This document shows positions 25,777-42,655 of a stretch of DNA of 64,000 nt, in pieces. This stretch comes from a virus (lineage: Duplodnaviria > Heunggongvirae > Uroviricota > Caudoviricetes). Under the pieces are notes generated by a model, which saw only the letters and a list, made by a program, of their open reading frames with translations, was not told where the DNA came from and did no database searches. The DNA lies in the IMG/VR virus record IMGVR_UViG_3300028048_000103, positions 1 to 64,000 of that record, one strand, 5' to 3'. The translations under genes and the position numbers were made by a program. Within the stretch, counting starts at the first letter, position 1; each line of letters begins with the position of its first letter.

Positions 25777-25804
25777 CATGTTAAAAACTTTCAGAAAACT
25801 TTTT

Positions 25805-26714: not shown

Positions 26715-26908
26715 AATATTTAAAAATAAACGATTTTAGACTAGATTCGTGAACCGTTTTTATGCTTAGAGCCATAGAAAATTTGCAACTTCTCTATGTT
26801 GTTACTTGAACGTGCGAATCCACAAACACACCGCTACCCCTTGAAACCACCTAAAAAGTGTGTACATCACTTTCATTATCAATGATTACCTTTCAAGTAT
26901 CTCTATTG

Positions 26909-26983
26909 TGGGAATGAAGGAATTCGAATCCCTGACCCTTTGAATGTAAGTCAAATGCTCTAACCCAACTGAGCTACACTCCC
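26909..26983 (-). tRNA. tRNA-Val (anticodon UAC)
   Basis: Reverse complement: acceptor GGGAGTG/CATTCCC, D-arm TAGCTCAGTTGGGTTAGAGC, anticodon stem TTTGA/TCAAA with loop CTTACAT, T-arm AGGGATTCGAATTCCTT. Confidence 0.65.
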
Positions 26984-27814: not shown

Positions 27815-27853
27815 TACTTCGGCTGCGACTCGAACGCAGGACCAACTGCTTAG
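27815..27853 (-). tRNA. 3' exon (positions 35-73) of intron-split tRNA-Arg (anticodon UCU)
   Basis: Reverse complement: CTAA-GCAGT-TGGTC-CTGCGTTCGAGTCGCAG-CCGAAGT-A. It pairs perfectly with the 5' exon at 28408..28441 (acceptor 7/7 including one G-U, anticodon stem ACTGC/GCAGT 5/5). Confidence 0.7.
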
Positions 27854-28407
27854 CTTACCACTATAACTTTCGTTACCAATATAAGACTAAAAATGACCTA
27901 CAGCACAAGAGGATTGCAGTCATTCCGTAACATCCCTTTTATGTTCCTCTTATTTCGGGTCTTTATATTGTTTGTGGTCTGGACTATCCCTTAACCATAT
28001 TGAAATCTTGCAAGATTGGATTAGGGTTCGTTCTTACCCCGAATAGCAGGTCGCTTTCCTGCACAGTTTGTTTTAATTTTAGAATCCAAATTTCAACTTA
28101 GGTTTCTTCCGTCTAGTCTCTACACACTGTCTATTACAAATACTGAAATGTAGCTTAATTGCATATATTTGCCTTCTATGCAATAACGCCTTTTCATTAC
28201 ATTCCCAATTAACACCTTTTGCAAACGAGGTGAGTATTTGTTTTTAACATTGGTTCGGTATTAGCATATATTAACAGGACTCTTCACCTGTCCGACTCAT
28301 ATAGAGTGTCTGATTTGATTTTATACTTAGCTTTCACCGAATTTGGAAGTTTCTACATCTAAAATTTCTTTTAGTGCACTCCTAATTAATTGATTATCAA
28401 TTACTTA
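27854..28407 (-). mobile_element. group I intron (about 554 nt) in the anticodon loop of tRNA-Arg(UCU), inserted after position 34
   Basis: Both flanking tRNA halves match exactly. The minus-strand reading has an R-like element GTAGAGACTA (28108-28117), an S-like GATAGTCCAGACC (about 27975-27990) and a P-like AATTCGGTGAAA (about 28335-28346) in the canonical order. It ends in G before the 3' exon, and the 5' exon ends in U. Confidence 0.6.
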
Positions 28408-28441
28408 AAGGCAGTTGCTCTATCCACTGAGCTACCGAAGC
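28408..28441 (-). tRNA. 5' exon (positions 1-34) of intron-split tRNA-Arg (UCU)
   Basis: Reverse complement: GCTTCGG-TA-GCTC-AGTGGATA-GAGC-A-ACTGC-CTT. Confidence 0.7.
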
Positions 28442-28465
28442 ATAAATAATATTTTTAAAAATTAG

Positions 28466-28504
28466 TGACCCCTGTGGGATTCGAACCCACGACCCCAACA
28501 TTAA
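28466..28504 (-). tRNA. 39-nt tRNA 3' half (anticodon N-U-U; acceptor AGGGGTC), 3' exon of the second intron copy
   Basis: Reverse complement: TTAA-TGTTG-GGGTC-GTGGGTTCGAATCCCAC-AGGGGTC-A. Same length and junction context (gtaccactataactttcgttacca) as the Arg 3' exon. Confidence 0.5.
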
Positions 28505-28932
28505 CGTACCACTATAACTTTCGTTACCAGTTGCAAACAAGGAGTTTAGCCCTATATTTACATACCTGTTTGTGGTCTGGACTGTATCTTAACCATATTG
28601 AAATCTTGCAAGATACTGTATGAAGAGATTTGCTGAGTTGCACAGCCTGTATCTAACTCCGGTTTCACTGGGAACATTCATACAATAATTTCAACTTAGG
28701 TTCCTCCTGTATAGTCTCTACACACTGTCTAAAGGTATTGCATTCTTGCAACTAAACTATCTCACTCCTTTTAACATTGGCTCGGTATTACCATCAGCAA
28801 CATACTTTCAAATCATTAATCCTCAGTATTCCCAAAGCATTCATTTACTTGTACGTTCTGTTAAGGTTTCACCGAATTAGGGAGGTTCTACATCCGAAGT
28901 TTCCTTCGGTGCACTCAAATTACACATTGTTC
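28505..28932 (-). mobile_element. second group I intron copy (about 430 nt), homologous to 27854..28407
   Basis: Shares four conserved blocks with intron 1: 3'-terminal accactataactttcgttacca, the S-like block at 28567-28612, the R-like block at 28688-28730, and the P-like block plus gtgcactc at 28870-28908. The central regions are divergent. Confidence 0.5.
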
Positions 28933-28967
28933 AAGACCGCTGCATTAGACCACTCTGCCACCTCACC
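28933..28967 (-). tRNA. tRNA 5' half resembling tRNA-Ser(UGA) (class II D-arm), 5' exon of the second intron copy
   Basis: Reverse complement: GGTGAGG-TG-GCA-GAGTGGTCTAA-TGC-A-GCGGT-CTT. This follows the architecture of a bacterial tRNA-Ser(UGA) 5' half. The acceptor GGTGAGG does NOT pair with the 3' half at 28466..28504. Confidence 0.45.
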
Positions 28968-29109
28968 GTAAAATAAAGATTATTCTGAACTCTGTCACCA
29001 TTAACAAATATTAGATAAAAATCTAATATTTAACAAATATTAGGTAAAAGTCTAATAATATTGTTAAACATTTATTCAATGTTACTGTCAGTTTTTTCTT
29101 TATTAAGAA

Positions 29110-29160
29110 AGTCACCATAGTATGCTGCAAGTTGGAATTGAACCAACAACTATATTCAGT
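29110..29160 (-). tRNA. orphan tRNA 3'-half-like element (T-arm GTTGGTTCAATTCCAAC, acceptor TTGCAGC)
   Basis: Good T-arm and 3' acceptor, but no canonical D or anticodon arm upstream. Possibly another split or degenerate tRNA. Confidence 0.25.
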
Positions 29161-29307
29161 TTTTTCATAATCACAGCCTTCGTGACCATATTTTATTTTC
29201 AATTTCACATATTCAATAAAATAATTTGTATTTATCAGTATTGTCAAAGAGCAATTAATTTCATTGCAAATATATAAATCTTTTTTTTAACAACAAAATT
29301 AATTTTA

Positions 29308-29378
29308 GTTGAAGGCAGAGGAATCGAACCTCTATTCTGGGAACCAAAATCCCATGTCTTGCCTTTAGACGAGCCTTC
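29308..29378 (-). tRNA. tRNA-Pro (anticodon UGG)
   Basis: Reverse complement: acceptor TGAAGGC/GCCTTCA, D-stem GTCT/AGAC, anticodon stem TGGGA/TCCCA with loop TTTTGGT, T-arm AGAGGTTCGATTCCTCT. Confidence 0.65.
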
Positions 29379-29405
29379 AATTTATTTCAAAGAACAATTG
29401 TTTAT

Positions 29406-29428
29406 CTTACAAATATCGTGCCAAAATA
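29406..29428 (-). promoter_or_regulatory. class I promoter-like motif upstream of tRNA-Pro
   Basis: cttacaaatatcgtgccaaaata. Confidence 0.4.
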
Positions 29429-29451
29429 TAAATTTTAACATTTTTTTTTTG

Positions 29452-29488
29452 CGGGAATGATAGGATTCGAACCTATAACCTACGGATT
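29452..29488 (-). tRNA. 3' exon of split tRNA-Asn (anticodon GUU)
   Basis: Reverse complement: AA-TCCGT-AGGTT-ATAGGTTCGAATCCTAT-CATTCCC-G. It pairs 7/7 (acceptor) and 5/5 (anticodon stem) with the 5' exon at 29591..29626. Confidence 0.6.
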
Positions 29489-29490
29489 AG

Positions 29491-29562
29491 ACTCAGCAAA
29501 AGGAATCGAACCTTTTTTTGGACTTGCAATGCCACCCGTCCTAACCATTAGACGATACTGAG
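29491..29562 (-). tRNA. tRNA-like element embedded inside the tRNA-Asn intervening sequence
   Basis: Reverse complement: acceptor CTCAGTA/TGCTGAG, D-arm GTCT-AATGGTTA-GGAC, T-arm AAAGGTTCGATTCCTTT. The anticodon-arm region GGTGGCATTGCAAGTCC does not form a canonical stem. Confidence 0.4.
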
Positions 29563-29590
29563 TTGGTTCGTTTCGGTGAACCATTCCGTT

Positions 29591-29626
29591 AACAGTCCGT
29601 TGCACTAACCGTTGTGCTACATTCCC
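29591..29626 (-). tRNA. 5' exon of split tRNA-Asn (GUU)
   Basis: Reverse complement: GGGAATG-TA-GCAC-AACGGTTA-GTGC-A-ACGGA-CTGTT(AA). Confidence 0.6.
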
Positions 29627-29638
29627 AATTATAAACTA

Positions 29639-29872
29639 CTATTCAGTAGTTTCAGTTTCTTCAGTCTTTACTGTATCTTCATTTTTAGGCATTGTTGCTG
29701 CTGTAACAGGTGCAACTGAATTCATCTTTTCATATTCCTCCTTCAACTTTTCAAGCCTCTTTTGTCTTGCCAACATAAGTCTCTTCTTTTCAGTAAGACT
29801 ATTTCTAACGTTTTCATTTGCATCCCTTCTTGGTGCATCAACATGTTTCTTAATGTGCTTTCTCTTTGTCAT
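29639..29872 (-). CDS. hypothetical basic K/E-rich protein
   Basis: 77-aa ORF embedded in the tRNA region. Confidence 0.4.
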   Translation of the reverse strand: MTKRKHIKKHVDAPRRDANENVRNSLTEKKRLMLARQKRLEKLKEEYEKMNSVAPVTAATMPKNEDTVKTEETETTE

Positions 29873-29901
29873 AATATATAAAGTTTAAAATTAAAAATTT
29901 G

Positions 29902-29975
29902 TACCCTCTCTCAGATTCGAACTGAGACTTTATAGGTTTTGAATCTATTCACTCTTCCAATTGGTGTAAGAGGGT
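29902..29975 (-). tRNA. type I tRNA with anticodon CAA (Leu codon UUG), atypical
   Basis: Reverse complement: acceptor ACCCTCT/AGAGGGT, T-arm CTCAGTTCGAATCTGAG, anticodon stem ATAGA/CCTAT (one mismatch) with loop TTCAAAA. The variable arm is short, unlike canonical tRNA-Leu. Confidence 0.45.
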
Positions 29976-30185
29976 AAAAAATATTGAGTTACTTGTCCTT
30001 ATCACCTTACAGTTGGTTCGTACTTCCTTCGCCTTGGATAATATATTGTTCATGCATGTCAACTATATTACCTGTACACCTTTACAACCCGCTATTGTTT
30101 TCACTGTAACACATACTTGCAAAAGCTGAAAGTTGTTTTCCTAATCCCTCACTCAATATTAAAATTTCAAAGAACATTTATTTAT

Positions 30186-30208
30186 CTTACAAAAATCATG
30201 CCAAAGGC
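30186..30208 (-). promoter_or_regulatory. class I promoter-like motif
   Basis: cttacaaaaatcatgccaaaggc, pointing leftward into the non-coding region 29981-30180 and the tRNA at 29902. Confidence 0.4.
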
Positions 30209-30234
30209 AATAAAAGCAAACATTTTTTTTTAAA

Positions 30235-30915
30235 TTACTTATTTAATATTTTGCCGTACAATTGGCCTCTTTTAAAATATTTTGATTTACCTGTGCGAGT
30301 TGGTTCAAGACTTTCTGTTATAATTTTGTCTATATCAATAGTATTTTCTCTCAAAGCCAAATCATCATATATTTTTTTTACTTGTTCAAAAAAAGGTATT
30401 CTAAATTTAAAATGCTTGGATATTTGTGTATAATAGTTATCATCATCTGTTGCATCTACAATTTCATGTTCTTCATGTTGAAGTTTTAATTGTGAGTGCT
30501 TGTCATCACCTTCCCAATATTGATACGAAACCTCTCCATCGTTTTGCATATCAACAAATATCACACTTTCTTGGTTATATTTGTAGCATAGATAAAGTGT
30601 ATCTTCAATAGTGATATTATATACCATTATAGAATTCTCAATACCATCATAGTTACCTTTTACTTTAAAATATTTATAATGTCCAATACTAAGTTGTCTT
30701 TCTAATTCATTACTTGCTTGCTGATTATATTCTTTTTCAGCCTTATTACCCATAGGATTTTCTGCTGAAATAATAGCCATTGTTCTAACCCTACGATTAG
30801 TTCCTCGTATTGCTTGTTGTGCTTTTTGTCTGCGTGATGTTTCCATCATGGCATTTTTAACACTTTTCTCTATTATATTTCTTAAATCAGTTTCAGTAAG
30901 AACTATTTTTTTCAT
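30235..30915 (-). CDS. hypothetical protein
   Basis: 226-aa ORF between tRNA blocks. Confidence 0.5.
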   Translation of the reverse strand: MKKIVLTETDLRNIIEKSVKNAMMETSRRQKAQQAIRGTNRRVRTMAIISAENPMGNKAEKEYNQQASNELERQLSIGHYKYFKVKGNYDGIENSIMVYNITIEDTLYLCYKYNQESVIFVDMQNDGEVSYQYWEGDDKHSQLKLQHEEHEIVDATDDDNYYTQISKHFKFRIPFFEQVKKIYDDLALRENTIDIDKIITESLEPTRTGKSKYFKRGQLYGKILNK

Positions 30916-30929
30916 ATTTTCTTTTTTTG

Positions 30930-31014
30930 TGGGAGTGGTTAGATTCGAACTAACTGTGTGTCATTGTAATGGATTTACAGTCCATCGCCCATCCACCATC
31001 TGAGCAGCACTCCC
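30930..31014 (-). tRNA. tRNA-Tyr (anticodon GUA), long variable arm
   Basis: Reverse complement: acceptor GGGAGTG/CACTCCC, anticodon stem ATGGA/TCCAT with loop CTGTAAA, a 16-nt variable arm, T-arm GTTAGTTCGAATCTAAC. Confidence 0.65.
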
Positions 31015-31095
31015 GTAATTAAATTCTTATTGAATTTAGAAGTCAATGTATCTCATCTTCCTACGGCTTAAAAATCCGAAAAACATACATAGTTG

Positions 31096-31178
31096 TGGGC
31101 ATTGAGAGACTTGAACTCTCACGTCATTCTGACACATGCTCCTTAGGCATGCCTGTCTACCAATTCCAGCAAACGCCC
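31096..31178 (-). tRNA. tRNA-Leu (anticodon AAG), class II
   Basis: Reverse complement: acceptor GGGCGTT/AATGCCC, D-loop AATTGGTAGA, anticodon stem CATGC/GCATG with loop CTAAGGA, long variable arm, T-arm GAGAGTTCAAGTCTCTC. Confidence 0.55.
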
Positions 31179-31250
31179 ATCATTTCATCGTATCACTTTT
31201 ATAAAAACCTCATATGTTTAAAACAACAATGCAAATATATAAATCTTTTT

Positions 31251-31406
31251 TTAAAAACCCAAATTTTTATGTACAAAAATAATGTTTTCTACATCAAAAT
31301 CATCTGTGTAATTCAACACTTCATTCAAAAATGTTTCCATTGTATAACCACTATGGTTTTTAAATTCCTCTTCCAATTGTTTGTGATTTTCCAAAATATT
31401 ATCCAT
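31251..31406 (-). CDS. possible small ORF (about 52 aa; MDNILENHKQLEEEFKNHSGYTMETFLNEVLNYTDDFDVENIIFVHKNLGF)
   Basis: Hand-translated; under 60 aa so absent from the track. It lies between two tRNAs. Confidence 0.25.
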   Translation of the reverse strand: MDNILENHKQLEEEFKNHSGYTMETFLNEVLNYTDDFDVENIIFVHKNLGF

Positions 31407-31429
31407 AATCATTAAATTTTATATTTTTG

Positions 31430-31503
31430 TGGGCAAGGTAGAACTCGAATCTACGGTCTCTTGAATATCAGTCAAGTGCTTTAACCAACTAAGCTACTTG
31501 CCC
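31430..31503 (-). tRNA. tRNA-Ile (anticodon GAU)
   Basis: Reverse complement: acceptor GGGCAAG/CTTGCCC, D-arm TAGCTTAGTTGGTTAAAGC, anticodon stem CTTGA/TCAAG with loop CTGATAT, T-arm GTAGATTCGAGTTCTAC. Confidence 0.65.
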
Positions 31504-31520
31504 TTATTTTTAAAATTTTG

Positions 31521-31602
31521 TGGGCACTGAGAGACTTGAACTCTCACATCCAAAGGATACATGCTTCTAAGGCATGTGTGTCTACCGTTCCACCAAGCAC
31601 CC
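31521..31602 (-). tRNA. tRNA-Leu (anticodon UAG), class II
   Basis: Reverse complement: acceptor GGGTGCT/AGTGCCC (two G-U pairs), anticodon stem CATGC/GCATG with loop CTTAGAA, long variable arm, T-arm GAGAGTTCAAGTCTCTC. Confidence 0.55.
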
Positions 31603-31607
31603 ATTTG

Positions 31608-31681
31608 AGTTTCAGGTGAGATTCGAACTCACGGATGTCAGTTTTGCAGACTGATGTGTTAAACCACTTCACCACTGAAAC
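31608..31681 (-). tRNA. tRNA-Cys (anticodon GCA)
   Basis: Reverse complement: acceptor GTTTCAG/CTGAAAC, anticodon stem TCAGT/ACTGA with loop CTGCAAA, T-arm GTGAGTTCGAATCTCAC. Confidence 0.6.
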
Positions 31682-31689
31682 ATATTTTG

Positions 31690-31764
31690 CAGAAGCGGAA
31701 AGATTCGAACTCTCATCAGGCAACTTTGGAGGATGCTATGCTTAACCATTTACACCACGCTTCC
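31690..31764 (-). tRNA. tRNA-Trp (anticodon CCA)
   Basis: Reverse complement: acceptor GGAAGCG/CGCTTCT, anticodon loop CTCCAAA (identical to E. coli tRNA-Trp), T-arm GAGAGTTCGAATCTTTC. Confidence 0.6.
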
Positions 31765-32109: not shown

Positions 32110-32940
32110 TTACAAATTTTCGTCAATAATATCATTAAATATTAAATGCGGATGAAATTTAATGATATCATTTTGTGCTTTAATGATGGTTTTTCCAATT
32201 TTGTTAGTATAAGTTTTAACAACATTTTTTGCCATATTATACCACCAATTAAAAGTTTTATTAAAAGTAGTATTCAGTATTTCATTAATTTTTTCTTTTT
32301 GGTTAGGTGTTAGGGTGTTTGTTACTTTATCAATTGTATTAATGTTTTTATATACTATTGTATTTTTTACTGTTTCAAAAGGGTCAATTTGCCAATTGTC
32401 CATAATTTGTTTATAAATTTCATTTATGAATGCATCTTTTTCAAATTTGTTGTTATAATATATAACATATCCTACTATTTTTTCAAAAGCATCTGTTGAT
32501 TTAGCTAATTTAGTTGCCGTATTATACATTTTTTTAGATTTATCATTATTTAATAAATCTTTACTTGATTTCATTTCTTGAAAAAGGTGTTCTATTTCAT
32601 GTTGTGTTGTTCCATTATAGTCAACATATCTATTTTGGTTTCTGAGGTAGCATAAAGTTGTTGTTAAATAATTATTTTTAAAGTTTCCTGGATTTACCAA
32701 ATTAAGTTTTTTAATGTCAGTACTATCGTTCAAATAAAATATTTGATATTCCACTTCAATAGGAAAACTAAAAACAAATGTTCTAAAAATACCTTTTTTA
32801 ATATTATTTTGTTTATTTTGTTCTTTAGCATTTTTAACTATGTTGGCAATTAACATATTAGTTTCTTTAACAACCGTCCTTGATATTCCAAGTTCTTCGT
32901 TTATTACCTTTTTGATTTCAGTTATTAAATTTTTTTCCAT
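32110..32940 (-). CDS. HExxH-motif protein, paralog 1 of 3 (putative zinc metalloprotease)
   Basis: 276 aa. Carries GTTQHEIEHLFQEMKS, YYNNKFEKDAFINEIYKQIMDN and KTFNWWYNMAKNVVKTY. Homologous to 33916..34800 and 38275..39135. Confidence 0.55.
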   Translation of the reverse strand: MEKNLITEIKKVINEELGISRTVVKETNMLIANIVKNAKEQNKQNNIKKGIFRTFVFSFPIEVEYQIFYLNDSTDIKKLNLVNPGNFKNNYLTTTLCYLRNQNRYVDYNGTTQHEIEHLFQEMKSSKDLLNNDKSKKMYNTATKLAKSTDAFEKIVGYVIYYNNKFEKDAFINEIYKQIMDNWQIDPFETVKNTIVYKNINTIDKVTNTLTPNQKEKINEILNTTFNKTFNWWYNMAKNVVKTYTNKIGKTIIKAQNDIIKFHPHLIFNDIIDENL

Positions 32941-32942
32941 AA

Positions 32943-33158
32943 TTATTTTTCTTTAATATATAATTGGCAGCAACAAATATCTTCTTCTCTATATGCTTTG
33001 CATGGACAGATATCATCATCAGTACCACTATATTTATTATTGCAAGGACAATGACCATTGCATCTATCAAGGCTCTTCATAATACCATTAACAATTTTGT
33101 CGTTTGGATTTATTTTCCATCCATCTTTTCTTAGTATTTTCCAATTTTTAAGTTCCAT
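32943..33158 (-). CDS. small Cys-rich protein (zinc-ribbon-like)
   Basis: 71 aa. CNGHCPCNNKYSGTDDDICPCKAYREEDICCCQLY. Confidence 0.4.
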   Translation of the reverse strand: MELKNWKILRKDGWKINPNDKIVNGIMKSLDRCNGHCPCNNKYSGTDDDICPCKAYREEDICCCQLYIKEK

Positions 33159-33161
33159 TTG

Positions 33162-33944
33162 TTATTTTTTGTTATATTGTTCAATTATTCCATTTTTTGT
33201 ATTTAAAACAAAAGCCTGTCTTACGTCAAGGTCAGCCACCCAATTTTCTACAATTGGTGTATCTTGTAATTGTGTATGGCCACAAATAAAATGTACATTT
33301 GGATATTCAATGTTGTTTTCGTCAGAATATTCATTGATATCAGCCCAAACAATTGACCCATTGTCCCAACCATCCCAACCTCTATATCTTGAATATATAC
33401 CCATTGCTATTTCAAAATCATGTGTAGATTTTGTTTCATAATTTCGTCCGTTATCATATGCAGCATGAAACAGATTGTTAAAATATTCAGCATCAGGAAG
33501 ACCTTCATTGTTCCATTCAAAAAGTTTATTTTTTACCCAAGTATCAAACCAATCTTTTCTTACACCTGCATGTGAAAAAAAATAACGTTTATTATTGATA
33601 GTTGTCTCCCAAGCAAGGTCAAATAATTTTATATTAGAAAAATATAATTTATTAAGTTTATTATAGTTTGTATAGTCAGTTCGACATTCACATATATTAC
33701 TATTAATGTATGAAAAATCATGATTTCCCATTAATAATACTACTTTATCATTATTTTCTTTTTTAAACTTAATAATTTCTTTGAAAATTTTCATTGCATG
33801 TGCATTGGTTATCTCTTCATATGGATATGGTGATACATAATCCCCTAAAAAAATAACCTTATCATAGTCATCAATATGTGCACATGGTTCAATCCAAAAT
33901 TCTCTTCCGTGTACATCAGGAATTATTAGTATTTTGTTCATCAT
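33162..33944 (-). CDS. calcineurin-like Ser/Thr phosphatase / metallophosphoesterase
   Basis: 260 aa. Motifs DVHG, GDYV, GNHD and a later GH... histidine motif in order. The stretch IIPDVHGREFW...VIFLGDYVSPYP...LLMGNHDFSY is PPP-family-like. Confidence 0.6.
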   Translation of the reverse strand: MMNKILIIPDVHGREFWIEPCAHIDDYDKVIFLGDYVSPYPYEEITNAHAMKIFKEIIKFKKENNDKVVLLMGNHDFSYINSNICECRTDYTNYNKLNKLYFSNIKLFDLAWETTINNKRYFFSHAGVRKDWFDTWVKNKLFEWNNEGLPDAEYFNNLFHAAYDNGRNYETKSTHDFEIAMGIYSRYRGWDGWDNGSIVWADINEYSDENNIEYPNVHFICGHTQLQDTPIVENWVADLDVRQAFVLNTKNGIIEQYNKK

Positions 33945-34800
33945 TTAAGAAATCATCTGTTTTAAAATTATTTTCTTCTATTCTTCCATATATATGTGTT
34001 AATGTGTTTTCTTGACACAAATCTTTTTGGGCTTTAACTATTATTTTTCCTATTTTGGTTTTGTAATTTTTAACAACATTCTTAGCCATGTTGTACCACC
34101 ATTTATAATGTTTTCCAAAGGTGTTTGAAACAATGTTATCTATTACTTGTTTAACATAAATTGAATCATTGTTCAGATATTTTTCAATAATTAATATGTT
34201 ATTAAATGTGTCAGTTTTTTTTACTATATCAATTGGGTTCTTAAATTTGTTATCAATAATTTGTCTATATATATCATTAGCATATCCATCCTTTTCGAAC
34301 CTATTGTTATAATAAACAGTAAAACCAACAAGTGCTTCAAATAAATTATTATTGGTTATACCTATTGTTATTAAATTTTTTGCTTTTGTATATGTAGTTA
34401 TATTTTGAGGTGTTAATAAATATTTTCCAGATTTAATTATTTGATATGTATGTTCAAGTTCGTGTTGTGTGCTTCCTTTATAGTCAATATATTTGTTTAT
34501 TTCCTTAATATAACAAATTATAACATGTATTTCTTTATTATTTGTGGTGTTACCTGCATCAATATAACTGAATTCTTCTTTTTCTTTAATGGTATTAAAA
34601 AAATATAGAGTATAAAAAACATCATATTTTTCACCAAAAAGATTATATTGTTTTAAACAGCCTTGTTTAATGCTATTGTTAGGTATAGATTTACTATTTT
34701 TAACAATATTGTTAATTAGTATGTTTGTGGTATTAGTTACCAATTGACTAATACCCAATTCTTCATTTATTTCTTGTGTAATTTCTTCAAAAAGTGTCAT
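33916..34800 (-). CDS. HExxH-motif protein, paralog 2 of 3
   Basis: 294 aa. Carries GSTQHELEHTYQIIKS, YYNNRFEKDGYANDIYRQIIDN and KHYKWWYNMAKNVVKNY. Confidence 0.55.
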   Translation of the reverse strand: MTLFEEITQEINEELGISQLVTNTTNILINNIVKNSKSIPNNSIKQGCLKQYNLFGEKYDVFYTLYFFNTIKEKEEFSYIDAGNTTNNKEIHVIICYIKEINKYIDYKGSTQHELEHTYQIIKSGKYLLTPQNITTYTKAKNLITIGITNNNLFEALVGFTVYYNNRFEKDGYANDIYRQIIDNKFKNPIDIVKKTDTFNNILIIEKYLNNDSIYVKQVIDNIVSNTFGKHYKWWYNMAKNVVKNYKTKIGKIIVKAQKDLCQENTLTHIYGRIEENNFKTDDFLNDEQNTNNS

Positions 34801-34840
34801 TTTTTGCTTTTTTTATACTATTTATTCTAAAAATTATTAA

Positions 34841-34984
34841 AGATATGGCATGTGCATGTAAACAAAAATCATCAGGTGAAGTTAAGGCTGTTAAACAAGT
34901 AGTAAAAAATGTTAACAAAAAAACAACGCCTAATACAAGTGTAAAGAAAACAACTGTAAGAAAAATTACTTATAGAAGACCCAT
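34841..34984 (+). CDS. possible small basic protein (about 47 aa, MACACKQKSSGEVKAVKQVVKNVNKK...)
   Basis: The only plus-strand ORF in the 188-nt gap between two minus genes; part of track ORF 34794..34988. Confidence 0.2.
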
Positions 34985-34988
34985 TTAA

Positions 34989-36563
34989 TTATAATCCGAC
35001 AGATAATGGATATTTAATTGAGGGATATGACTGATATTCTTTAATCTTAATATCACCATATGTAAACTCTTCTATATTTTTCCTCTCAGGATTAAGCCAT
35101 AACTTAGGAAGTCCATACATGTGTGGATTTCTATTTTTTTGCTCTTTTTCGTAAATTTCAATTTGGTTTTCATACATATGTACATCACCACCGCTAAATA
35201 TAAGTTCATCTACACCCATATTACAACATTGCGCAATCATATAAGTCATTATAGAATAGGAAGTTATATTGTACGGTAAACCTAAACCACAATCCACGCT
35301 GCGCTGATTCCACATACAACTTAGTTTTCTTGTTGGAACACCTGCATTGTCAAATATTCTATTACTTCTTTCCTCATCATCAGGATACCATATAACAGAC
35401 CCATCAGCATAATTATCAACTACGTATTGTTCTCTTTCTTTGAAAGTCATTTTCTTCGTATAGAACTGACAGCAATAGTGACAAGGAGGCAATGCCATTG
35501 TTTTTAATTCACCAACGTTCCAAGCGGAAACAATAAGCCTTCTGTCATCAGGGTTAGTTTTAAGTTTATTAATAAGTTCATTAATTTGGTCAACACCGTT
35601 CCAATTTCTCCATTGTTTACCATAAACAGGGCCTAAATCACCAAACACATACTGTTTATAAGTAGATAAATTATCTTCGATACTTTTAGGGTATATTTTA
35701 GTTTGTTTTAAAACCTCAGATAAAAAATCATTTTTTGAAAGTTGTGGTGTTGTATTATTTTTGGTAAGTTCCAAATAATACCTATATGCATCATCATCCC
35801 AAATATGAACACCATTTTCTACTAAATATTTAATATTGGTTTCACCTTTTAAAAACCAAAGAAGTTCATGAATAATTCCTTTTGTAAATACTTTTTTTGT
35901 CGTGAGTATTGGTAAACCCTCTTTTAAATTAAATCTAAGTTGTTTACCAAATAATGACCTTGTTTTACCTGCTCTTGTATCTTTGATTTCACCATGTTCA
36001 ATAATATCATTAACTAAATTAAGATATTGTTCATCAACATGATTGTTCATACCATTACATTTAATATATGTCATTGCATAAGCCTTTCTATGTTCTATCT
36101 CAATAGGTTGACCAATTTCCTCCCAATTTGGATTCGTTACAATATCTGGAAAAAAAGTATCAGCATCAGGTACATCAACCGCAAGCATATCAATCATCAC
36201 CTTGTCTACTAAATTATGTGATAAAGCATAATCATATATACTTGCACCACCAATAATGAAAATTTCATCATCTATTGTTTTAGCATAACTTATTGCTTCT
36301 TCGACATCACTGACAACTTTTACATCTTTATATCTTGCTTCATATTCTTTTCTTGAAGTAACAACAATATTGGTTCTGTTTGGAAGTGGATGACCAATTG
36401 CTTCAAATGTTTTTCTACCCATAATAACAGGATGTCCTGTTGTTGTGTCTTTAAACCATTTTAAATCCGCCTTATTATTCCAAGGCATATTTCCTTTTAT
36501 ACCAATAGGGAAACCATGATTTGGTACATAGTTTCCCACGGCAACAATAATATTAACACTCAT
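34989..36563 (-). CDS. bifunctional dihydrofolate reductase-thymidylate synthase (DHFR N-terminal, TS C-terminal)
   Basis: 524 aa. The N-terminus IVAVGNYVPNHGFPIGIKGNMPWN...DLKWFKDTTTGHPVIMGRKTFEAIG...RTNIVVTS matches DHFR. The C-terminus PVYGKQWRNW...DDRRLIVSAWNVGEL...MALPPCHYCCQFY matches ThyA including the catalytic Cys. Confidence 0.8.
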   Translation of the reverse strand: MSVNIIVAVGNYVPNHGFPIGIKGNMPWNNKADLKWFKDTTTGHPVIMGRKTFEAIGHPLPNRTNIVVTSRKEYEARYKDVKVVSDVEEAISYAKTIDDEIFIIGGASIYDYALSHNLVDKVMIDMLAVDVPDADTFFPDIVTNPNWEEIGQPIEIEHRKAYAMTYIKCNGMNNHVDEQYLNLVNDIIEHGEIKDTRAGKTRSLFGKQLRFNLKEGLPILTTKKVFTKGIIHELLWFLKGETNIKYLVENGVHIWDDDAYRYYLELTKNNTTPQLSKNDFLSEVLKQTKIYPKSIEDNLSTYKQYVFGDLGPVYGKQWRNWNGVDQINELINKLKTNPDDRRLIVSAWNVGELKTMALPPCHYCCQFYTKKMTFKEREQYVVDNYADGSVIWYPDDEERSNRIFDNAGVPTRKLSCMWNQRSVDCGLGLPYNITSYSIMTYMIAQCCNMGVDELIFSGGDVHMYENQIEIYEKEQKNRNPHMYGLPKLWLNPERKNIEEFTYGDIKIKEYQSYPSIKYPLSVGL

Positions 36564-36566
36564 TGT

Positions 36567-37268
36567 TTATTCTTTTGACTTCGTTATTATTTCATCAATA
36601 AGGCCATAAGTTCCATATACGCCAGGTAATGCTTCATTAGGCATAAGCCAATGGTCTCTATCAGCATCTTTTTCAATTTCCTCAAATGTTTTACCTGTAT
36701 TCTCAGCCAAAATATTGTAAAGGATATTTTGCCATTTTTGTGATTCTCTTGCTTCAATTTGAAGGTCTGCGTTTTTAAGATAACCATTATATGATGCAAC
36801 CTGATGAATCATAATTGTACTGTTAGGCAATGCATATCTTTTACCTCTCACGCCTGATGACAAGAGTATTGATGCCATTGATGCTGCCATTCCCATGCAG
36901 TATGTAGCAACATCAGGTATAACAAAATTACATGTATCTCTTATTGAAAGGCCATCAATAACACTCCCACCTCCGCTTGATATGAACATTTTAATTGTGT
37001 CATCAATATCTGAAATTGAATTAAGATAAAGAAGTTGTGCGTTAATCACACTTGCGGTATCACCATCAATTTCGCCTGAAAGATAAATAATTTTCTCTCT
37101 AATCAAGGCAGAAAACACATCCATTGATGCAACATTAAGTGGTCTTTCCTCAATAATTGTAGGGCTTATAATCCTGTTCTTAATTGTGTTGTTATAGCCG
37201 TTAATTTTACTTGTACTAACACCCTTATCAATGGCAAATTTCTCAAAATCGTTTAACTTATAATTCAT
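36567..37268 (-). CDS. clpP: ClpP-family serine protease
   Basis: 233 aa. MFISSGGGSVIDGLSIRDTCNFVIPDVATYCMGMAASMASILLSSGVRGKRYALPNSTIMIHQ aligns with the ClpP Ser (GMAASMAS) and His (MIHQ) catalytic context. Confidence 0.7.
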   Translation of the reverse strand: MNYKLNDFEKFAIDKGVSTSKINGYNNTIKNRIISPTIIEERPLNVASMDVFSALIREKIIYLSGEIDGDTASVINAQLLYLNSISDIDDTIKMFISSGGGSVIDGLSIRDTCNFVIPDVATYCMGMAASMASILLSSGVRGKRYALPNSTIMIHQVASYNGYLKNADLQIEARESQKWQNILYNILAENTGKTFEEIEKDADRDHWLMPNEALPGVYGTYGLIDEIITKSKE

Positions 37269-37278
37269 AATATTTTAA

Positions 37279-37303
37279 TTTTTAACAAATATATAAAAAG
37301 TTA
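37279..37303 (-). promoter_or_regulatory. class II variant promoter-like motif
   Basis: tttttaacaaatatataaaaagtt, about 12 nt upstream of the ClpP ATG. Confidence 0.35.
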
Positions 37304-37321
37304 TTTTAAAAAGCAAAAATA

Positions 37322-38263
37322 TTAGTCCTCATGTTTTAACAACATTGACGGATTAACATGTGTGATTTCATCCGTTATAGGTTCAATTTCTTTATCATCG
37401 TAATAAACTGATGCTGCACTACCAATACCTTTAATTAGTTTGTTCAATCTAAAATTGATTTTTTTTCTAAATTCTTTTTTAAATGATAATAGTCCATCAT
37501 GATATGGTTTAATGTTTATTCCACTTTTTCGTAAACTTACGTTTATTTGATGATAATTATCATTGTTAATCGCACGGAACAAATCAGGTAAATTTTCTCT
37601 TATTTTTCTATATAGACAATATGCTTGACTTTCTTGAATGTCATGTCTGAAATTTTTTCTCTCTGAATTACAACCTTGTAAAGAACCGTAAACAGATGCT
37701 ATTAAAGCGTTTAGTTCAGTTTCCGAAAATAGTCTATAAATAATAAGTTCTAAGATTTCTTTAAGATAATCATCAATTTGTATGTCAGCAGTGTCAATTT
37801 TTGACTTTGTGGCACTGTTCGCATATCTTCTTGCAACCCCCCAATTATTAGTTATATCTTGATAGTAATCGTACACATGGTTTAGTTCATGATACAATGA
37901 TGTCAATATAGTTTTAGTGTACAAAACATGTTTGTAAGAATATGCATATATAAAAATTTTAGCGTTTTTTAATTTACCGTTAACAATTTCGTTTGTGTAT
38001 TTTACTGTTGTTTTTCCCCCACCACTCAAAAATTTACCATTAACATTTTCAGTGACCGTAATTTCAAGATAAAGATTTTCAACAAAATCAATTTTTTGTG
38101 TAATTTCATTTGGAAGTACGAAATTTGTAGTTCCGGTAAATTTGTTTTTCCATATAAAATCTTGACAATATTTAATAATTTCTTTAGCCACATTATTATA
38201 TTTTGATGCAGCAACACCTCTTTCTTCGACTAATCTTATTATTTTTTCTTCTGATAATACCAT
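37322..38263 (-). CDS. hypothetical protein
   Basis: 313-aa ORF. Confidence 0.5.
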   Translation of the reverse strand: MVLSEEKIIRLVEERGVAASKYNNVAKEIIKYCQDFIWKNKFTGTTNFVLPNEITQKIDFVENLYLEITVTENVNGKFLSGGGKTTVKYTNEIVNGKLKNAKIFIYAYSYKHVLYTKTILTSLYHELNHVYDYYQDITNNWGVARRYANSATKSKIDTADIQIDDYLKEILELIIYRLFSETELNALIASVYGSLQGCNSERKNFRHDIQESQAYCLYRKIRENLPDLFRAINNDNYHQINVSLRKSGINIKPYHDGLLSFKKEFRKKINFRLNKLIKGIGSAASVYYDDKEIEPITDEITHVNPSMLLKHED

Positions 38264-38274
38264 AAGTCACTCAA

Positions 38275-39135
38275 TTATTTTAATAATTCTTCACCAATTC
38301 CAAATGTTCCACCATCAAGTTCATGATATTTTTTATTTAAATCATTATATGCTTTAGCATAAACTTTTCCAATTTTGTTAATATATGTTTTAACTACTTT
38401 ATTTGTCAAATTATAAAACCAAGTGTAATTTTTACCAAAATTTGTTTTAACAATATCAGTAAATTTGTTTTTATAAATTTCGCTATCTAATACATATTTT
38501 TTAATAGTATTGATGTTTTGATATGTTATTGTTGATTTTAATGTTTCGTATGGATTGTTATTTGGATTATTTATTATTTGTCTATAAATTGCATTAGCAA
38601 AAGCATCTTTTTCAAACCTACAACCATAATACACAACAGTACCAACAATTTTATCACAAAAATCAAAAGAATTTTTTAGTTTTTCTGATTTTTTATATAA
38701 AGAAAGGCTATCTCTATTTGAAAGCAAATGTTTTCCGGATTTAATCATCTGATAAATATGTTCAAGTTCGTGCTGAAGATTACCATTAAAATCAATATAT
38801 TGATTAATATCACTAACATAAACTATTGTTGTTTTTAACTCGTATGTGTTGTTGTTAATTTTATTGGAACTTCCTCTATTATTCGAAATTGAATAAAATA
38901 TGTCATTATATGTAGACACATAGTACAAATCATAATTTATATTAATTGTACTATTTTCAAAATTATAAGCAAAATTACCATGTTTATAATTTCTAATACT
39001 GTTTTTTTGTGAAGGTACGGTTTTACTGTGTTGAATTATTTTTGATAATATATCATTTGATGTTGTTGACACAATATCAGCAACACCGAGTTCTTCATAT
39101 AATTTGTACCTTATTTCTGTTAACAAATCTTTCAC
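38275..39135 (-). CDS. HExxH-motif protein, paralog 3 of 3
   Basis: 286 aa. Carries GNLQHELEHIYQMIKS, YYGCRFEKDAFANAIYRQIINN and KNYTWFYNLTNKVVKTY. Confidence 0.55.
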   Translation of the reverse strand: MKDLLTEIRYKLYEELGVADIVSTTSNDILSKIIQHSKTVPSQKNSIRNYKHGNFAYNFENSTININYDLYYVSTYNDIFYSISNNRGSSNKINNNTYELKTTIVYVSDINQYIDFNGNLQHELEHIYQMIKSGKHLLSNRDSLSLYKKSEKLKNSFDFCDKIVGTVVYYGCRFEKDAFANAIYRQIINNPNNNPYETLKSTITYQNINTIKKYVLDSEIYKNKFTDIVKTNFGKNYTWFYNLTNKVVKTYINKIGKVYAKAYNDLNKKYHELDGGTFGIGEELLK

Positions 39136-39140
39136 TATTA

Positions 39141-39980
39141 TTATAAATTAATTAACTCTTCATTATCATTTTCAATATCATCAATATTATTTATTACAAA
39201 TTTGTAATAACCACCATCAGGATTAGGGACATCAATATATTCATAAATAACATCATCCTTGTCTGATATGTCCCATAACACAAAACCATGTTCGGATATA
39301 CTTTCACCAAAATTTTTTTGATTAATTGATGAACAGTACACGATTTTAACACCGTTCTTTTTAATTTCCTGTTTTTTATGAATATGGCCGGCAATAACAA
39401 AATCACAATTTTCAAAAACATTGGGGTCAACACCATTTTCGGTAACACGATTAGTTGCAGTAATTGCACCATTGACATCACCATGGATTAAACCAATGTA
39501 TATGTTATCATCACCGTATTTTGTTTTTGCTGCTTCTATATCAGGAGGGTTAAAACCTTCAAATGATGAATAAAGACACCAAACAACATTATCATCTTTA
39601 AAACAATCTGATTTATATTTAAGTTGTTTGTCAAGATAAATAACATTTTTCATTTTGTTAATTTCGAATAGAGGTGTTATTGAATCAACCCTTTCTATAT
39701 TATTCATTAACATATCATGGTTTCCTGCAATAACAATTGTTTTAGTTATTTTACCAAGTTCATCTAAAAACCAATAAGCCAATAATTGTGATTCATTCGA
39801 AATATTAATTTTTTGATTAAATAAATCACCTGCAACCACAATTCTTACATTATCTTTTTCCTCCTTTTCAACAATCTCTTTACATTGATTTATAAATGTG
39901 GTTAAAATAGTTTTTAATTCGTCAATCCCCTGATAATTAGGAATATGTATATCACTGCATGCAATTATTTTAGTTATCAT
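39141..39980 (-). CDS. SbcD/Mre11-like metallophosphoesterase (putative nuclease)
   Basis: 279 aa. Motifs ACSDIHI, VVAGDLF, AGNHD and GHIH in the canonical order. Confidence 0.5.
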   Translation of the reverse strand: MITKIIACSDIHIPNYQGIDELKTILTTFINQCKEIVEKEEKDNVRIVVAGDLFNQKINISNESQLLAYWFLDELGKITKTIVIAGNHDMLMNNIERVDSITPLFEINKMKNVIYLDKQLKYKSDCFKDDNVVWCLYSSFEGFNPPDIEAAKTKYGDDNIYIGLIHGDVNGAITATNRVTENGVDPNVFENCDFVIAGHIHKKQEIKKNGVKIVYCSSINQKNFGESISEHGFVLWDISDKDDVIYEYIDVPNPDGGYYKFVINNIDDIENDNEELINL

Positions 39981-40330
39981 TTCTTTTTGTTCTTTTTTTG
40001 TTGTTCATCATATTTATATATTTCTTCATAGTCAAAATCATACTTAAGACCCCATTGAAGATTAAACCAATTGAATTCACGTTCCATTTGTGATTTTTTC
40101 ACTGATTTTGGTTGCCAATCATAAAAATGGTCGTAGAAAAACTGTCTCCATTCAAGAAACTGTTCAAGGGTTTTAAATGTAAATCTTGTATAAAATTCAT
40201 ATTCTTTTTGTTCTTCTTCGGGCATTGCTGTAATGTCCTTATATCTGACATCAGTACCACTGATTTCAAGTTCTTTGTCTATTATTAATTCAACAAATTC
40301 TTTGTCTGTTAATTTTTTTACATAAGCCAT
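39977..40330 (-). CDS. hypothetical protein
   Basis: 117-aa ORF, Phe/Tyr/Trp-rich. Confidence 0.45.
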   Translation of the reverse strand: MAYVKKLTDKEFVELIIDKELEISGTDVRYKDITAMPEEEQKEYEFYTRFTFKTLEQFLEWRQFFYDHFYDWQPKSVKKSQMEREFNWFNLQWGLKYDFDYEEIYKYDEQQKKNKKK

Positions 40331-40354: not shown

Positions 40355-41404
40355 TTAAACCAATTCAAGTTCAGTAAATTGTTTTTTTGATTTCATTATT
40401 TTAATTATATTTTTTTTACCATCTTCTTCATAGGCTTCGCCAAAATCTTTCCACGGTAATGTGTTAGTTCCTAATCTAACATACCAAATTTTGCCATATA
40501 GTTTTCCTTGATTAAGTAGTTGGTATATTCTTTTTATTTCACTAATATCAACATCACCATCAAGACATATTGTGACATTGGCATTTGCTTTTTTATAAAT
40601 TTTTTTATAGAGTTCAGTATCTTTAGTTAATGCTTTTCCAAGTAAACTAATAACATTGCCGTTGCCATATATACAATCAATTGCACCCTCAACAAGCCAT
40701 ATATCAGCGTTCCATTTAATTTTGTCTTCCTGAAATATTATTTGTTTTTTATCAATATTACAGTTTTTATATTTAACTTTTTTGGAATTACCTGAAAAAT
40801 CTCTTCCAACCCAATAATTTAAATCACCATTAATATCATATGATGGTATTATAATCCTATCTCTATCTTGCCATTTTTCCTCATCCCAAGTAGTATAACC
40901 AATGTTATAATAATCAATAATTTCTTGGTTAATATTTCTTTTTTTTAGATATTCAACTAATTTCTTTTTTTTACATTTTTCAAGATTAATTTTAGTAAAA
41001 GTTGGTGGCAAAACAACATTGTTTGTTATACCTAATAAATTATTTTGATTATCTTTGAATAGTTCTAAATTATAATATTTATTTTCTTTAAATTCATCAA
41101 TTATTGCAAAATATTCAGACAATAATTCAGAAGTGCCCCATCGTTTTATCAATTTTGATATGTTACCACCATGTTCAGTTGACCAATCATGATATTTACC
41201 TAATGATAAAGATACTTCAAGATTATATTTGCCATCAGGTATTCCACTGTTTTCATCAGTTATCCAAGGTGAATTAAATTGATATTGAGTTTCATTTACA
41301 TTGAACCCTCCTTGTTTTGATTCACCTAAAATTGTTTGTAAAATGTTATATATACTTTTTACTTCTAATGGTAACATATATAGTGGTTTTGTACAAAAAT
41401 ACAA
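40355..41404 (-). CDS. Toprim-domain protein (DnaG-like primase candidate)
   Basis: 349 aa. WLVEGAIDCIYGNGNVISLLG ... VTICLDGDVD gives the conserved Glu and the DxD of a Toprim fold. Confidence 0.45.
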   Translation of the reverse strand: MYFCTKPLYMLPLEVKSIYNILQTILGESKQGGFNVNETQYQFNSPWITDENSGIPDGKYNLEVSLSLGKYHDWSTEHGGNISKLIKRWGTSELLSEYFAIIDEFKENKYYNLELFKDNQNNLLGITNNVVLPPTFTKINLEKCKKKKLVEYLKKRNINQEIIDYYNIGYTTWDEEKWQDRDRIIIPSYDINGDLNYWVGRDFSGNSKKVKYKNCNIDKKQIIFQEDKIKWNADIWLVEGAIDCIYGNGNVISLLGKALTKDTELYKKIYKKANANVTICLDGDVDISEIKRIYQLLNQGKLYGKIWYVRLGTNTLPWKDFGEAYEEDGKKNIIKIMKSKKQFTELELV

Positions 41405-41439: not shown

Positions 41440-42294
41440 CTAAGCCTTAATAGTAGATACAACATTCAATAGTCTTTTCTTAGTTTTAGAAATTATTTGT
41501 CTAATACGTTCAGAGGAAAAACCAAGTTGTTCTCCAATTTCATAATTAGTATATTCTTTATCATAATCAATGCCAAAAGCCATTTTCATTATTGTTCTAT
41601 CTCTTTCGTTTAATATTGAAAGAAGTTTCTTTATTACTGCCTTGTTATGTTCCTTATCTATTGTCTCTTCATAATCATTATAACTGGCTGTTCTTTGATT
41701 ATATGCTTTGGTTTTTTCTTTAGTATTTTCTTCATCATCAAGAAAATCATTTATTGATTCCGATGAAATATCAAATACTTCACTTTCATTCTGAATTTCA
41801 ACATTAAAATCATTTTTCATGAAATCAATTATTTCATCATCAGAAGGATATCTACCGTTTTCGCAATAAAATTTGTTTTTAATCTTATTTAGTTTAGTAC
41901 CAATTTTCATATTATTGGTTCTTTTAATAAGAAGATTATCATTTGTCATATAATAATTTATGGCCCTTCTTATATACCAAACAGCATATGACAAAAATCT
42001 TACACCTTTTGTATCATCATATTTTTCAATTGCCGTAATGAGGCCAATGTTACCTTCATTAACTAAGTCCATTATTGAATCATCTGATGCATATCTTTTG
42101 GCAATAGCAAAAACAAACCTCTGATTACAATTAATAAGTTTTTCTCTTGCTTCATTATCACCTTCTTTAATCTTATAAATCAAATCAATTTCCTCATCAG
42201 GAGAAAGCAAAGGATATTTGCGTATTTCGGAAAGATAAGTATTAAGACCATCAGTTTTAGGTGTAAAACCACCATTAATAAGTTTAATATTCAT
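41440..42294 (-). CDS. sigma-70 family RNA polymerase sigma factor
   Basis: 284 aa. Region 2 reads DLVNEGNIGLITAIEKYDDTKGVRFLSYAVWYIRRAI. A region 4-like helix-turn-helix reads YTNYEIGEQLGFSSERIRQIISKTKKRL. Confidence 0.7.
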   Translation of the reverse strand: MNIKLINGGFTPKTDGLNTYLSEIRKYPLLSPDEEIDLIYKIKEGDNEAREKLINCNQRFVFAIAKRYASDDSIMDLVNEGNIGLITAIEKYDDTKGVRFLSYAVWYIRRAINYYMTNDNLLIKRTNNMKIGTKLNKIKNKFYCENGRYPSDDEIIDFMKNDFNVEIQNESEVFDISSESINDFLDDEENTKEKTKAYNQRTASYNDYEETIDKEHNKAVIKKLLSILNERDRTIMKMAFGIDYDKEYTNYEIGEQLGFSSERIRQIISKTKKRLLNVVSTIKA

Positions 42295-42304: not shown

Positions 42305-42655
42305 TTAATTTAAATTATATAAAATTTTTCCGTATTTAGTTTTTCCTTCTCTTATATATTTACCATCAATATTGTAAATTATTTCACCATATGATGTCTG
42401 CCCTTTCCTTATATAGTTTCCATCAATAGTATAAACTATTTTACCATAAGAAGAAGGTCCTTTTCTTATATATTTACCATCAATATAAAAGAGAATATAA
42501 CCATAACTTGTTTGTCCCTTTCTTATATATTTACCGTCAATATTATAAACGATTTCGCCATAACTTGTTTGTCCTTTTCTAATGTTAATTTTTTCAGAAA
42601 AGGGTGATAGTATAAATGAAAGGAGTATAGTTAGTATTAACAAAAATCGCACCAA
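42305..42655 (-). CDS. secreted tandem-repeat protein (four 19-aa repeats, MORN-like)
   Basis: 116 aa. A hydrophobic N-terminus is followed by four YIRKGQTSYGxIxYNIDGK repeats. Confidence 0.5.
   Translation of the reverse strand: MVRFLLILTILLSFILSPFSEKINIRKGQTSYGEIVYNIDGKYIRKGQTSYGYILFYIDGKYIRKGPSSYGKIVYTIDGNYIRKGQTSYGEIIYNIDGKYIREGKTKYGKILYNLN

Follow-up and report, generated by a model that had tools for sequence, protein, structure and literature searches.

Four diverged copies of an unannotated HExxH protein family, candidate zincin-like metallohydrolases, in a giant uncultivated phage

A 64,000-nucleotide stretch from a giant, uncultivated Caudoviricetes phage (IMG/VR record IMGVR_UViG_3300028048_000103, positions 1 to 64,000; hereafter the window) carries four copies of a protein family with an HExxH motif, three short forms (S1, S2 and S3) and one long form (L), set among genes for replication and nucleotide metabolism (Table 1). 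A preliminary description of this DNA had singled out the short forms (32110, 33916 and 38275) as paralogs, and every open reading frame (ORF) it listed was recovered in place on the minus strand. In BLASTP comparisons S1 and S2 are 43% identical over 262 amino acids (aa; E 8e-63), S1 and S3 39% over 276 aa (E 2e-55), and S2 and S3 40% over 271 aa (E 6e-49). Judged by sequence, this similarity is far beyond chance and the three are clear paralogs. The description had correctly recognised three copies but missed a fourth, distant one, L, for which BLASTP showed no link to the short forms (E above 0.7). Independently built profiles of the short and long forms aligned in hhalign with a probability of 90.8% (E 1.2e-6, 257 columns), with the motifs EE[LR]G, HExxH and Y...E-x-[N/D]-A all in register. 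A search of all 349 window ORFs with a hidden Markov model (HMM) of the family (hmmsearch) returned exactly four copies, S1, S2, S3 and L.

The HExxH motif lies at residues 114-118 in S1 (HEIEH), 113-117 in S2 (HELEH), 122-126 in S3 (HELEH) and 125-129 in L (HELNH). It is followed by YYNNKFEKDA at 161-170 in S1, by Y163 and E169 in S2, by YYGCRFEKDA at 169-178 in S3 and by YRLFSETELNA at 176-186 in L, in which the N-terminal motif reads VEERGVA (11-17). Three sequence blocks had been described as common to the short forms. QHE[IL]EH is present in all three; YYNN[KR]FEKD and WWYNMAKNVVK are exact in S1 and S2, but S3 has YYGCRFEKD and WFYNLTNKVVK in their place.

Conservation was counted in an alignment of 132 diverse representatives of 50%-identity clusters (alignment A3), with residues numbered as in S2, the 33916 protein. 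E13, H113 and E169 are present in all 132 representatives, and E114, H117 and Y163 in 131 each. Further positions are nearly as constant: A172 (127/132), Y178 (124/132), G16 (122/132) and N or D at 171 (119/132). HExxH looks functional: 130 of the 132 representatives keep it complete along with the invariant downstream Glu. With a mean column identity of 15%, this conservation pattern, as read from the alignment, is that of enzyme-like purifying selection.

AlphaFold2 models of S2 were built from a 52-sequence alignment, and gave a predicted local distance difference test score (pLDDT) of 88.9 and a predicted template modelling score (pTM) of 0.83 for the full-length protein, and 91.7 and 0.84, respectively, for residues 1-186. 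The model begins with N-terminal helices, including one at 19-36, followed by a 4-5-stranded sheet (residues 44-106) whose strands (44-54, 57-68, 90-98 and 103-106) directly precede a helix at 107-124 that holds HExxH in its second turn, with pLDDT above 90 there. Three more helices follow; Y163 ends one of them and E169 starts the next (167-183), and a C-terminal helical extension of roughly 100 residues completes the protein. Gluzincins are built in the order backing helix, sheet, active-site helix and Glu helix, and the predicted order of elements in S2 matches this expectation. Both His residues and the Glu of HExxH are conserved in alignment A3, the motif helix follows a beta-sheet in the models, and the invariant E169, at the start of its predicted helix, is a candidate third ligand. 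The preliminary description had set a non-helical context, or a match to a known structural protein, against an enzymatic role; HExxH falls in a confidently predicted helix right after the sheet, and the searches turned up no known structural protein as a match.

The family is large, so far without annotation, and found here only on phage-like metagenomic contigs. An exhaustive HMM search recovered 1,168 clusters (50% identity) at E <=1e-3 and 587 at E <=1e-10, with members mostly 275-390 aa long. A word-indexed search returned 60 relatives, every one metagenomic, on contigs of up to 374 kb; family-bearing contigs of 90-390 kb carry phage genes, and IMG/VR viral contigs with members measure 91-393 kb. 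The IMG/VR and metagenome scans relied on exact peptide patterns and returned few loci. Where a source names a member at all, the name is "hypothetical protein". The sole fusion found is one member with an N-terminal GNAT domain. No match was obtained by tblastn with four different members against 50,697 GenBank phage records, pattern searches of 185,579 GTDB species genomes found no family copy, and literature searches found no description of this HExxH family.

Table 1. Genes and features around the four family members, in the direction of transcription (minus strand, high to low coordinates)
Feature	Coordinates	Strand	Evidence or remark
sigma-70-family factor	41440-42294	-	NCBIfam identification
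primase	40355-41404	-	
117-aa ORF	39977-40330	-	
SbcD/Mre11-like metallophosphoesterase, 279 aa	39141-39980	-	Pfam Metallophos E 2.7e-10; directly upstream of S3
S3, short form, 286 aa, GTG start	38275-39135	-	paralogy, family hmmsearch
L, long form, 313 aa	37322-38263	-	family hmmsearch E 1.4e-99; between S3 and ClpP
ClpP-family serine protease	36567-37268	-	Pfam CLP_protease E 7e-54; directly downstream of L
bifunctional DHFR-thymidylate synthase (DHFR-TS)	34989-36563	-	Thymidylat_synt E 7e-93, DHFR_1 E 2.6e-39; neighbour, not a family member
gap of 188 nt between DHFR-TS and S2			
S2, short form, 294 aa	33916-34800	-	paralogy, family hmmsearch
PPP-like calcineurin-type metallophosphoesterase, 260 aa	33162-33944	-	Pfam Metallophos E 3.5e-11
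Cys-rich mini-protein, 71 aa, 8 Cys	32943-33158	-	not a family member
S1, short form, 276 aa	32110-32940	-	family hmmsearch E about 7e-76; final protein gene ahead of the tRNAs
array of 16 tRNA genes	31764 down to 23412	-	

As shown in Table 1, the neighbours named in the preliminary description were confirmed: the PPP-like and SbcD-like genes both encode calcineurin-like phosphoesterases, and the DHFR-TS, ClpP and Cys-rich mini-protein genes are where they were said to be. The SbcD-like protein also matches PHROG 100 ("SbcD-like", E 7e-29) and the NCBIfam model sbcd (5.5e-14, under its cut-off). Each paralog had been placed beside a metallophosphoesterase, which is true of S2 and S3, but the mini-protein gene separates S1 from the PPP-like gene. 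The region is AT-rich (G+C content of 25-31% across 29-43 kb), and all real genes there are on the minus strand. S3 begins 5 nt past the SbcD-like gene, and the PPP-like gene starts inside S2, the two sharing 29 nt. If the 188-nt gap is set aside, these genes are spaced by -29 to +53 nt, so that the layout is operon-like. The primases of the closest cultivated phages are just 28-39% identical to that of the window.

The 188-nt gap holds, on the opposite strand, a very basic 47-aa ORF (34845-34988, plus strand; MACACKQKSSGEVKAVKQVVKNVNKKTTPNTSVKKTTVRKITYRRPI). Close homologs of 45-46 aa (MAC[AS]CK...YRRPI) keep this opposite-strand site after DHFR-TS in three related phage loci (L003, L004 and L011), and the ORF looks like a conserved micro-protein. 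The mini-protein gene is co-oriented and tightly set between the PPP-like gene and S1, and its product has the motif CPC-x11-CPC-x9-CCC. It matches PHROG 38239 (function not known) at E 2e-5, and a PDB search returned five ferredoxin-thioredoxin reductase catalytic-chain sequences over the Cys motif at a non-significant E of about 6. The catalytic subunit of that reductase has the cluster-binding motif CPC...CPC...CHC, which the mini-protein motif resembles, and the product may be an Fe-S or redox mini-protein. The gene is not present at the orthologous L003 locus.

The tRNA array (23412-31764, minus strand) comprises Ser, Thr, His, Glu, Ala (two), Met, Val, Gln, Leu (three), Tyr, Ile, Cys and Trp genes, with small ORFs and a DUF3293/S-adenosylmethionine (SAM)-lyase-like gene (30235-30915) scattered through it. 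Related phages have arrays of 10-27 tRNAs in the same place, and L003 also has a transfer-messenger RNA (tmRNA) gene (15270-15644) and a CTA-anticodon (amber-reading) tRNA gene (9068-9140). Just beyond the sigma-factor gene lies a 116-aa protein (42305-42655, minus strand) whose N-terminus is hydrophobic and leads into five tandem repeats, each about 19 aa long (IRKGQTSYGEIVYNIDGKY), that are MORN-like in look. On the other side of the array, a 382-aa protein (21308-22456, minus strand) matches F420-0:gamma-glutamyl ligase (PF01996, E 5e-32), which is unusual for a phage. The plus strand encodes a 437-aa protein with BspA-type leucine-rich repeats (50860-52173) and a 1,320-aa protein with BACON and viral-BACON domains (53380-57342). 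These two suggest a Bacteroidota host and possible surface or glycan binding.

The preliminary description had proposed a triplication. Each copy, however, has orthologs of its own in other phages. S1 orthologs (P0007-P0015) are 61-62% identical to it, the syntenic S2 ortholog (P0005) 64%, and S3 orthologs (P0003 and P0006) 71-73%; for L the values are 96% (P0004, on a 363-kb contig) and 74-76% (P0018 and P0021). Identity to orthologs thus spans 61-96%, versus 39-43% among the short paralogs. Since each copy is closer to its own ortholog than to its paralogs, the duplications are old, and the preservation of orthologs at this level argues that all four copies have been kept under selection. 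A recent tandem triplication is therefore rejected in favour of four old, independently retained paralogs.

Related loci place S2 in the ancestral position after DHFR-TS. L004 (363 kb) and L011 (262 kb) share the order primase, small ORF, SbcD-like gene, L, ClpP, DHFR-TS, one short form, tRNA array and SAM lyase. Compared with these, S3 has been added in the window after the SbcD-like gene, and the PPP-like gene, the mini-protein gene and S1 after S2. In the 352-kb phage (L003), the S1 ortholog comes directly after a PPP-like gene and before 27 tRNAs and a tmRNA, and in the 374-kb phage (L001) the S3 ortholog P0003 adjoins a Dam methylase gene. Returning to L004 and L011: In these two related phages DHFR-TS is followed by a GIY-YIG/NUMOD3 homing-endonuclease gene (L004 11701-14684; L011 7183-9688). 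In L004 a 64-aa thymidylate-synthase fragment stands after that gene, which suggests an intron or homing-endonuclease gene insertion that the window lacks, and L001 has ThyX in place of DHFR-TS (16113-17069). L004 also has an IS605 OrfB/TnpB-type gene with a Cas12f1-like TNB domain (6439-7566, minus strand) just upstream of the primase gene, likewise missing from the window.

We favour the reading that the four proteins are mononuclear metallohydrolases, zincin-like (gluzincin-type) but very divergent, and in all probability peptidases, and give it about an even chance. H113 and H117, on the helix after the sheet, would bind one divalent metal, expected to be Zn2+, together with a third ligand, E169, on a later helix in the motif E-x-[N/D]-A. 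E114 would serve as general base, and Y163 would help to stabilise the transition state. The invariant E13 of EE[LR]G could be a further ligand, act as a latency switch or form a structural salt bridge. As part of this explanation the four proteins are soluble and cytoplasmic and would act in the infected cytoplasm. The co-directional packing of their genes with replication and nucleotide-metabolism genes suggests that they are probably expressed with early or middle genes, and the old paralogs are presumably specialised for different substrates, host or phage.

Among the weak matches metallopeptidases are enriched; the preliminary description had named peptidases as one possibility. In the scan of 132 members, sub-threshold Pfam matches were almost exclusively to zincin families: Peptidase_M91 was hit over the HExxH helix by 27 of the 132 (best E 1.4e-4), and others were to SprT-like, M76, DUF6782, BSP, PhageMetallopep and DUF2268. 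In the PDB hmmsearch the WLM domain of Wss1 aligned on "...tlyHElnH" at E 0.49. All of the Pfam matches are sub-threshold, however, and do not establish a zincin fold. Several results count against the zincin assignment. Nothing passed threshold when the window proteins and 52 or 132 members were scanned against Pfam, PHROGs, NCBIfam and PADLOC, sequence searches of the PDB with profiles A1, A2, A3 and A5 returned chance matches only, and the best Foldseek match of the full S2 model to solved structures was not significant (E 0.12). Profile comparisons point the same way. In hhalign the family aligned with an M78 profile (120 sequences, seeded from the mycobacteriophage Che9c metalloprotease) at a probability of 0.7-2.9%, with an NleD/M91 profile (14 sequences, seeded from E. 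coli O157 NleD) at about 1% and over only 14-18 residues around HExxH, and, with A3 as query, with the single sequence of E. coli MtfA at 0.7%, over 37 columns around HExxH only. A control comparison of M91 with M78, two accepted zincin families, also gave 0.8%; these tests thus exclude family membership and say nothing on superfamily or shared fold.

Three established peptidase families were rejected as a home for these proteins. For Peptidase M91 (NleD), matches stay below the PF14891 gathering score of 25 bits, the window's L scoring 13.5 bits. Peptidase M78 does not come up among the leading Pfam families even with E allowed to reach 1, and its hhalign probabilities are those given above. 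For Peptidase M90 (MtfA) and anthrax lethal factor-like proteins, the comparison with the single MtfA sequence showed no similarity reaching from HExxH to the Y-x6-E third-ligand motif. The Y-to-E spacing of MtfA-like proteins is similar to the 7 residues of the long form, which is a lead only. The window family does not belong to any defined family, and probably represents a new, deeply diverged zincin-like family. No new mechanism is demonstrated by these data; what they describe is a family of hypothetical proteins with a plausible generic activity.

The main rival, which we consider unlikely, is that the proteins are metal-dependent enzymes other than peptidases: hydrolases of RNA, tRNA or nucleotides, or redox enzymes whose HExxH holds Fe(II), as in the alpha-ketoglutarate-dependent HExxH hydroxylases. 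They would cooperate with the genes for RNA repair, tRNAs or nucleotide metabolism nearby. The gene neighbourhoods prompt this rival, as does E13, an unexplained invariant residue outside the classical zincin signature. In a second clade (L005, L015, L016/L020 and L017), genes for a tRNA-ligase CPD domain, a CCA-adding/poly(A) polymerase, RlaP and an RNA ligase all occur no more than 10 kb from the long form, and RlaP homologs occur near members in 7 loci (L005, L015, L016, L017, L020, L021 and L028). In the window, L003, L004 and L011, a short-form gene stands last ahead of the tRNA array; DHFR-TS is syntenic in the latter three, and neighbours elsewhere or here include SAM lyase, SAM synthetase, adenylosuccinate synthase and the two phosphoesterases. 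Non-protease HExxH enzymes with a "zincin-reminiscent" fold are also documented (PMC12636437). Many of the loci share synteny, however, so that neighbourhood counts are not independent, and a third clade (L018, L023, L028, L029 and L032) has a 388-aa member followed by an RmlB-like sugar-nucleotide dehydratase gene instead. Family members gave no match to Pfam HEXXH-type hydroxylase, nuclease or RNA-binding families. When the four window proteins were compared with NCBIfam, with E allowed to reach 0.1, only two unrelated chance matches came back and none to a HEXXH-domain model, the presence of the hydroxylase model TIGR04267 in the set being unconfirmed. The weak matches that do appear are all to peptidase families.

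BLAST clustering of neighbours over about 20 loci argues against any conserved partner gene, a candidate we rejected because neighbours differ by phage clade; at L012, for example, they include DUF932 and a pyrimidine-dimer excision enzyme. In L028 (7746-11010) and L032 (3682-6999), members of 388-401 aa and 327-333 aa flank a 349-aa dTDP-glucose 4,6-dehydratase-like protein (GxxGxxG ... YxxxK), the shorter, second member following the dehydratase. The multi-copy arrangement of the family is thus not unique to the window.

A bolder proposal, which we hold to be improbable, is that these proteins form a structurally new class of HExxH metalloenzyme, so far known only from large phages that appear to be lytic, with a catalytic centre that includes E13, H113, E114, H117, Y163 and E169. 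Its substrates would be other than ordinary proteins and could be damaged or cleaved tRNA or RNA, or tRNA-acting host defence nucleases, given how often members lie next to tRNA arrays and genes for RNA repair. If this is true, an arms race with host defences would lie behind the several old paralogs.

The preliminary description had also inferred a modular cassette, in which each HExxH protein might work with or regulate the adjacent phosphoesterase. There are three direct adjacencies in the window; L004 and L011 keep the SbcD-like gene paired with the long form, and L003 keeps the PPP-like gene paired with S1. By BLAST clusters, PPP-like homologs occur near members in L003, L021 and L033 and SbcD-like homologs in L001, L004, L011 and L016/L020, a homolog of either lying 8-10 kb or less from a member in L001, L016/L020, L021 and L033. 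Direct adjacency is found only in the window's own clade, however, where the whole region is syntenic. The L001 ortholog of S3 sits beside the Dam methylase gene, 4 kb from the phosphoesterase, and in the 352-kb phage the long form (L020) is about 170 kb from the short form (L003). There is no Metallophos gene in the Pfam tables of L005 and L012, and no BLAST-cluster homolog of either window phosphoesterase in L009, L015, L017, L018, L026, L028 and L032. Elsewhere members adjoin RNA-repair genes (L005, L015-L017 and L020) or the RmlB-like dehydratase gene (L028 and L032), and no fusion to a phosphoesterase was seen, the GNAT fusion being the only one. The proposed cassette is at best clade-specific synteny, and we give a functional unit of this kind little credence.

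Of similarly low probability is a non-catalytic role as structural, adaptor or decoy proteins, for instance a ClpP adaptor, with the conserved residues holding a structural metal or a fold-stabilising network. In the window, and likewise in L004 and L011 (there with an inserted DUF723 gene), the long form does come directly before ClpP, and no fold match to any enzyme was found. The order is not kept in L001, L005, L012, L015-L018 and L020, and only the window's own syntenic clade shows adjacency to ClpP, as is true of that to the phosphoesterases. The genes are in the company of replication rather than virion genes, and the conserved set is exactly of the catalytic type, H-E-x-x-H with its general-base Glu plus the Tyr and Glu downstream.

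Last, the suggestion of ImmA/IrrE-type (M78) regulatory proteases, or of anti-sigma-like factors, that would cleave or sequester a transcription regulator, perhaps acting with the phage sigma factor, is very improbable: the long-form E-T-E-L-N-A-L does resemble the M78 motif E-x-E-A-N-x-F-A, and the sigma-70-family gene is 2 kb upstream, but no member had Peptidase_M78 among its top Pfam families, hhalign reached 2-3% at most, no helix-turn-helix (HTH)/Xre gene was found among the Pfam-scanned window flanks or the Pfam tables of related loci (small ORFs were not scanned), and the phage looks strictly lytic, since the pattern searches of GTDB genomes yielded no family copy.

At least 1,168 clusters of phage proteins at 50% identity thus share a strictly conserved, catalytic-looking signature without annotation, profile-database family or structural relative. 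With the family defined, a gene that recurs in giant phages of gut and rumen would gain an annotation, and the zincins would gain a very divergent branch or a look-alike. Phages retain as many as four diverged copies, and a second lineage has two, which suggests substrate diversification typical of host takeover or counter-defence. We regard the family as moderately interesting: it is phage "dark matter" that is well conserved and offers a clear way into experiments.

Among known systems, the alpha-ketoglutarate-dependent HExxH hydroxylases (IPR026337; ChlH, BpmH and PflC) are HExxH enzymes that are not proteases, with a fold reminiscent of zincins yet distinct, and this precedent for a conserved HExxH outside proteases weighs against a peptidase assignment here (PMC12636437). 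The window family differs from ImmA/IrrE/CapP (M78, COG2856) in being about twice as long as the M78 proteins retrieved, in its extra invariant N-terminal motif, and in having no Pfam M78 (PF06114/COG2856) match and no HTH partner among annotated neighbours. Peptidase M91, the NleD-type effectors of type III secretion systems, provides the commonest weak Pfam match and is likewise a small, cytoplasmically acting HExxH enzyme, although every match is below the gathering score. The classical third-ligand motif of gluzincins (MEROPS clan MA(E); Pfam clan Peptidase_MA) is E-x-x-x-D, whereas that of the window family would be E-x-[N/D]-A; unlike gluzincins, the family also has an additional invariant N-terminal Glu (EE[LR]G) and a C-terminal helical extension of about 100 residues, and it has no significant sequence, profile or fold match to any of them. 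Like the gluzincins, it has HExxH on a predicted helix right after a beta-sheet, and about 50 residues downstream an invariant Glu at the predicted start of a helix, with a conserved Tyr just before it.

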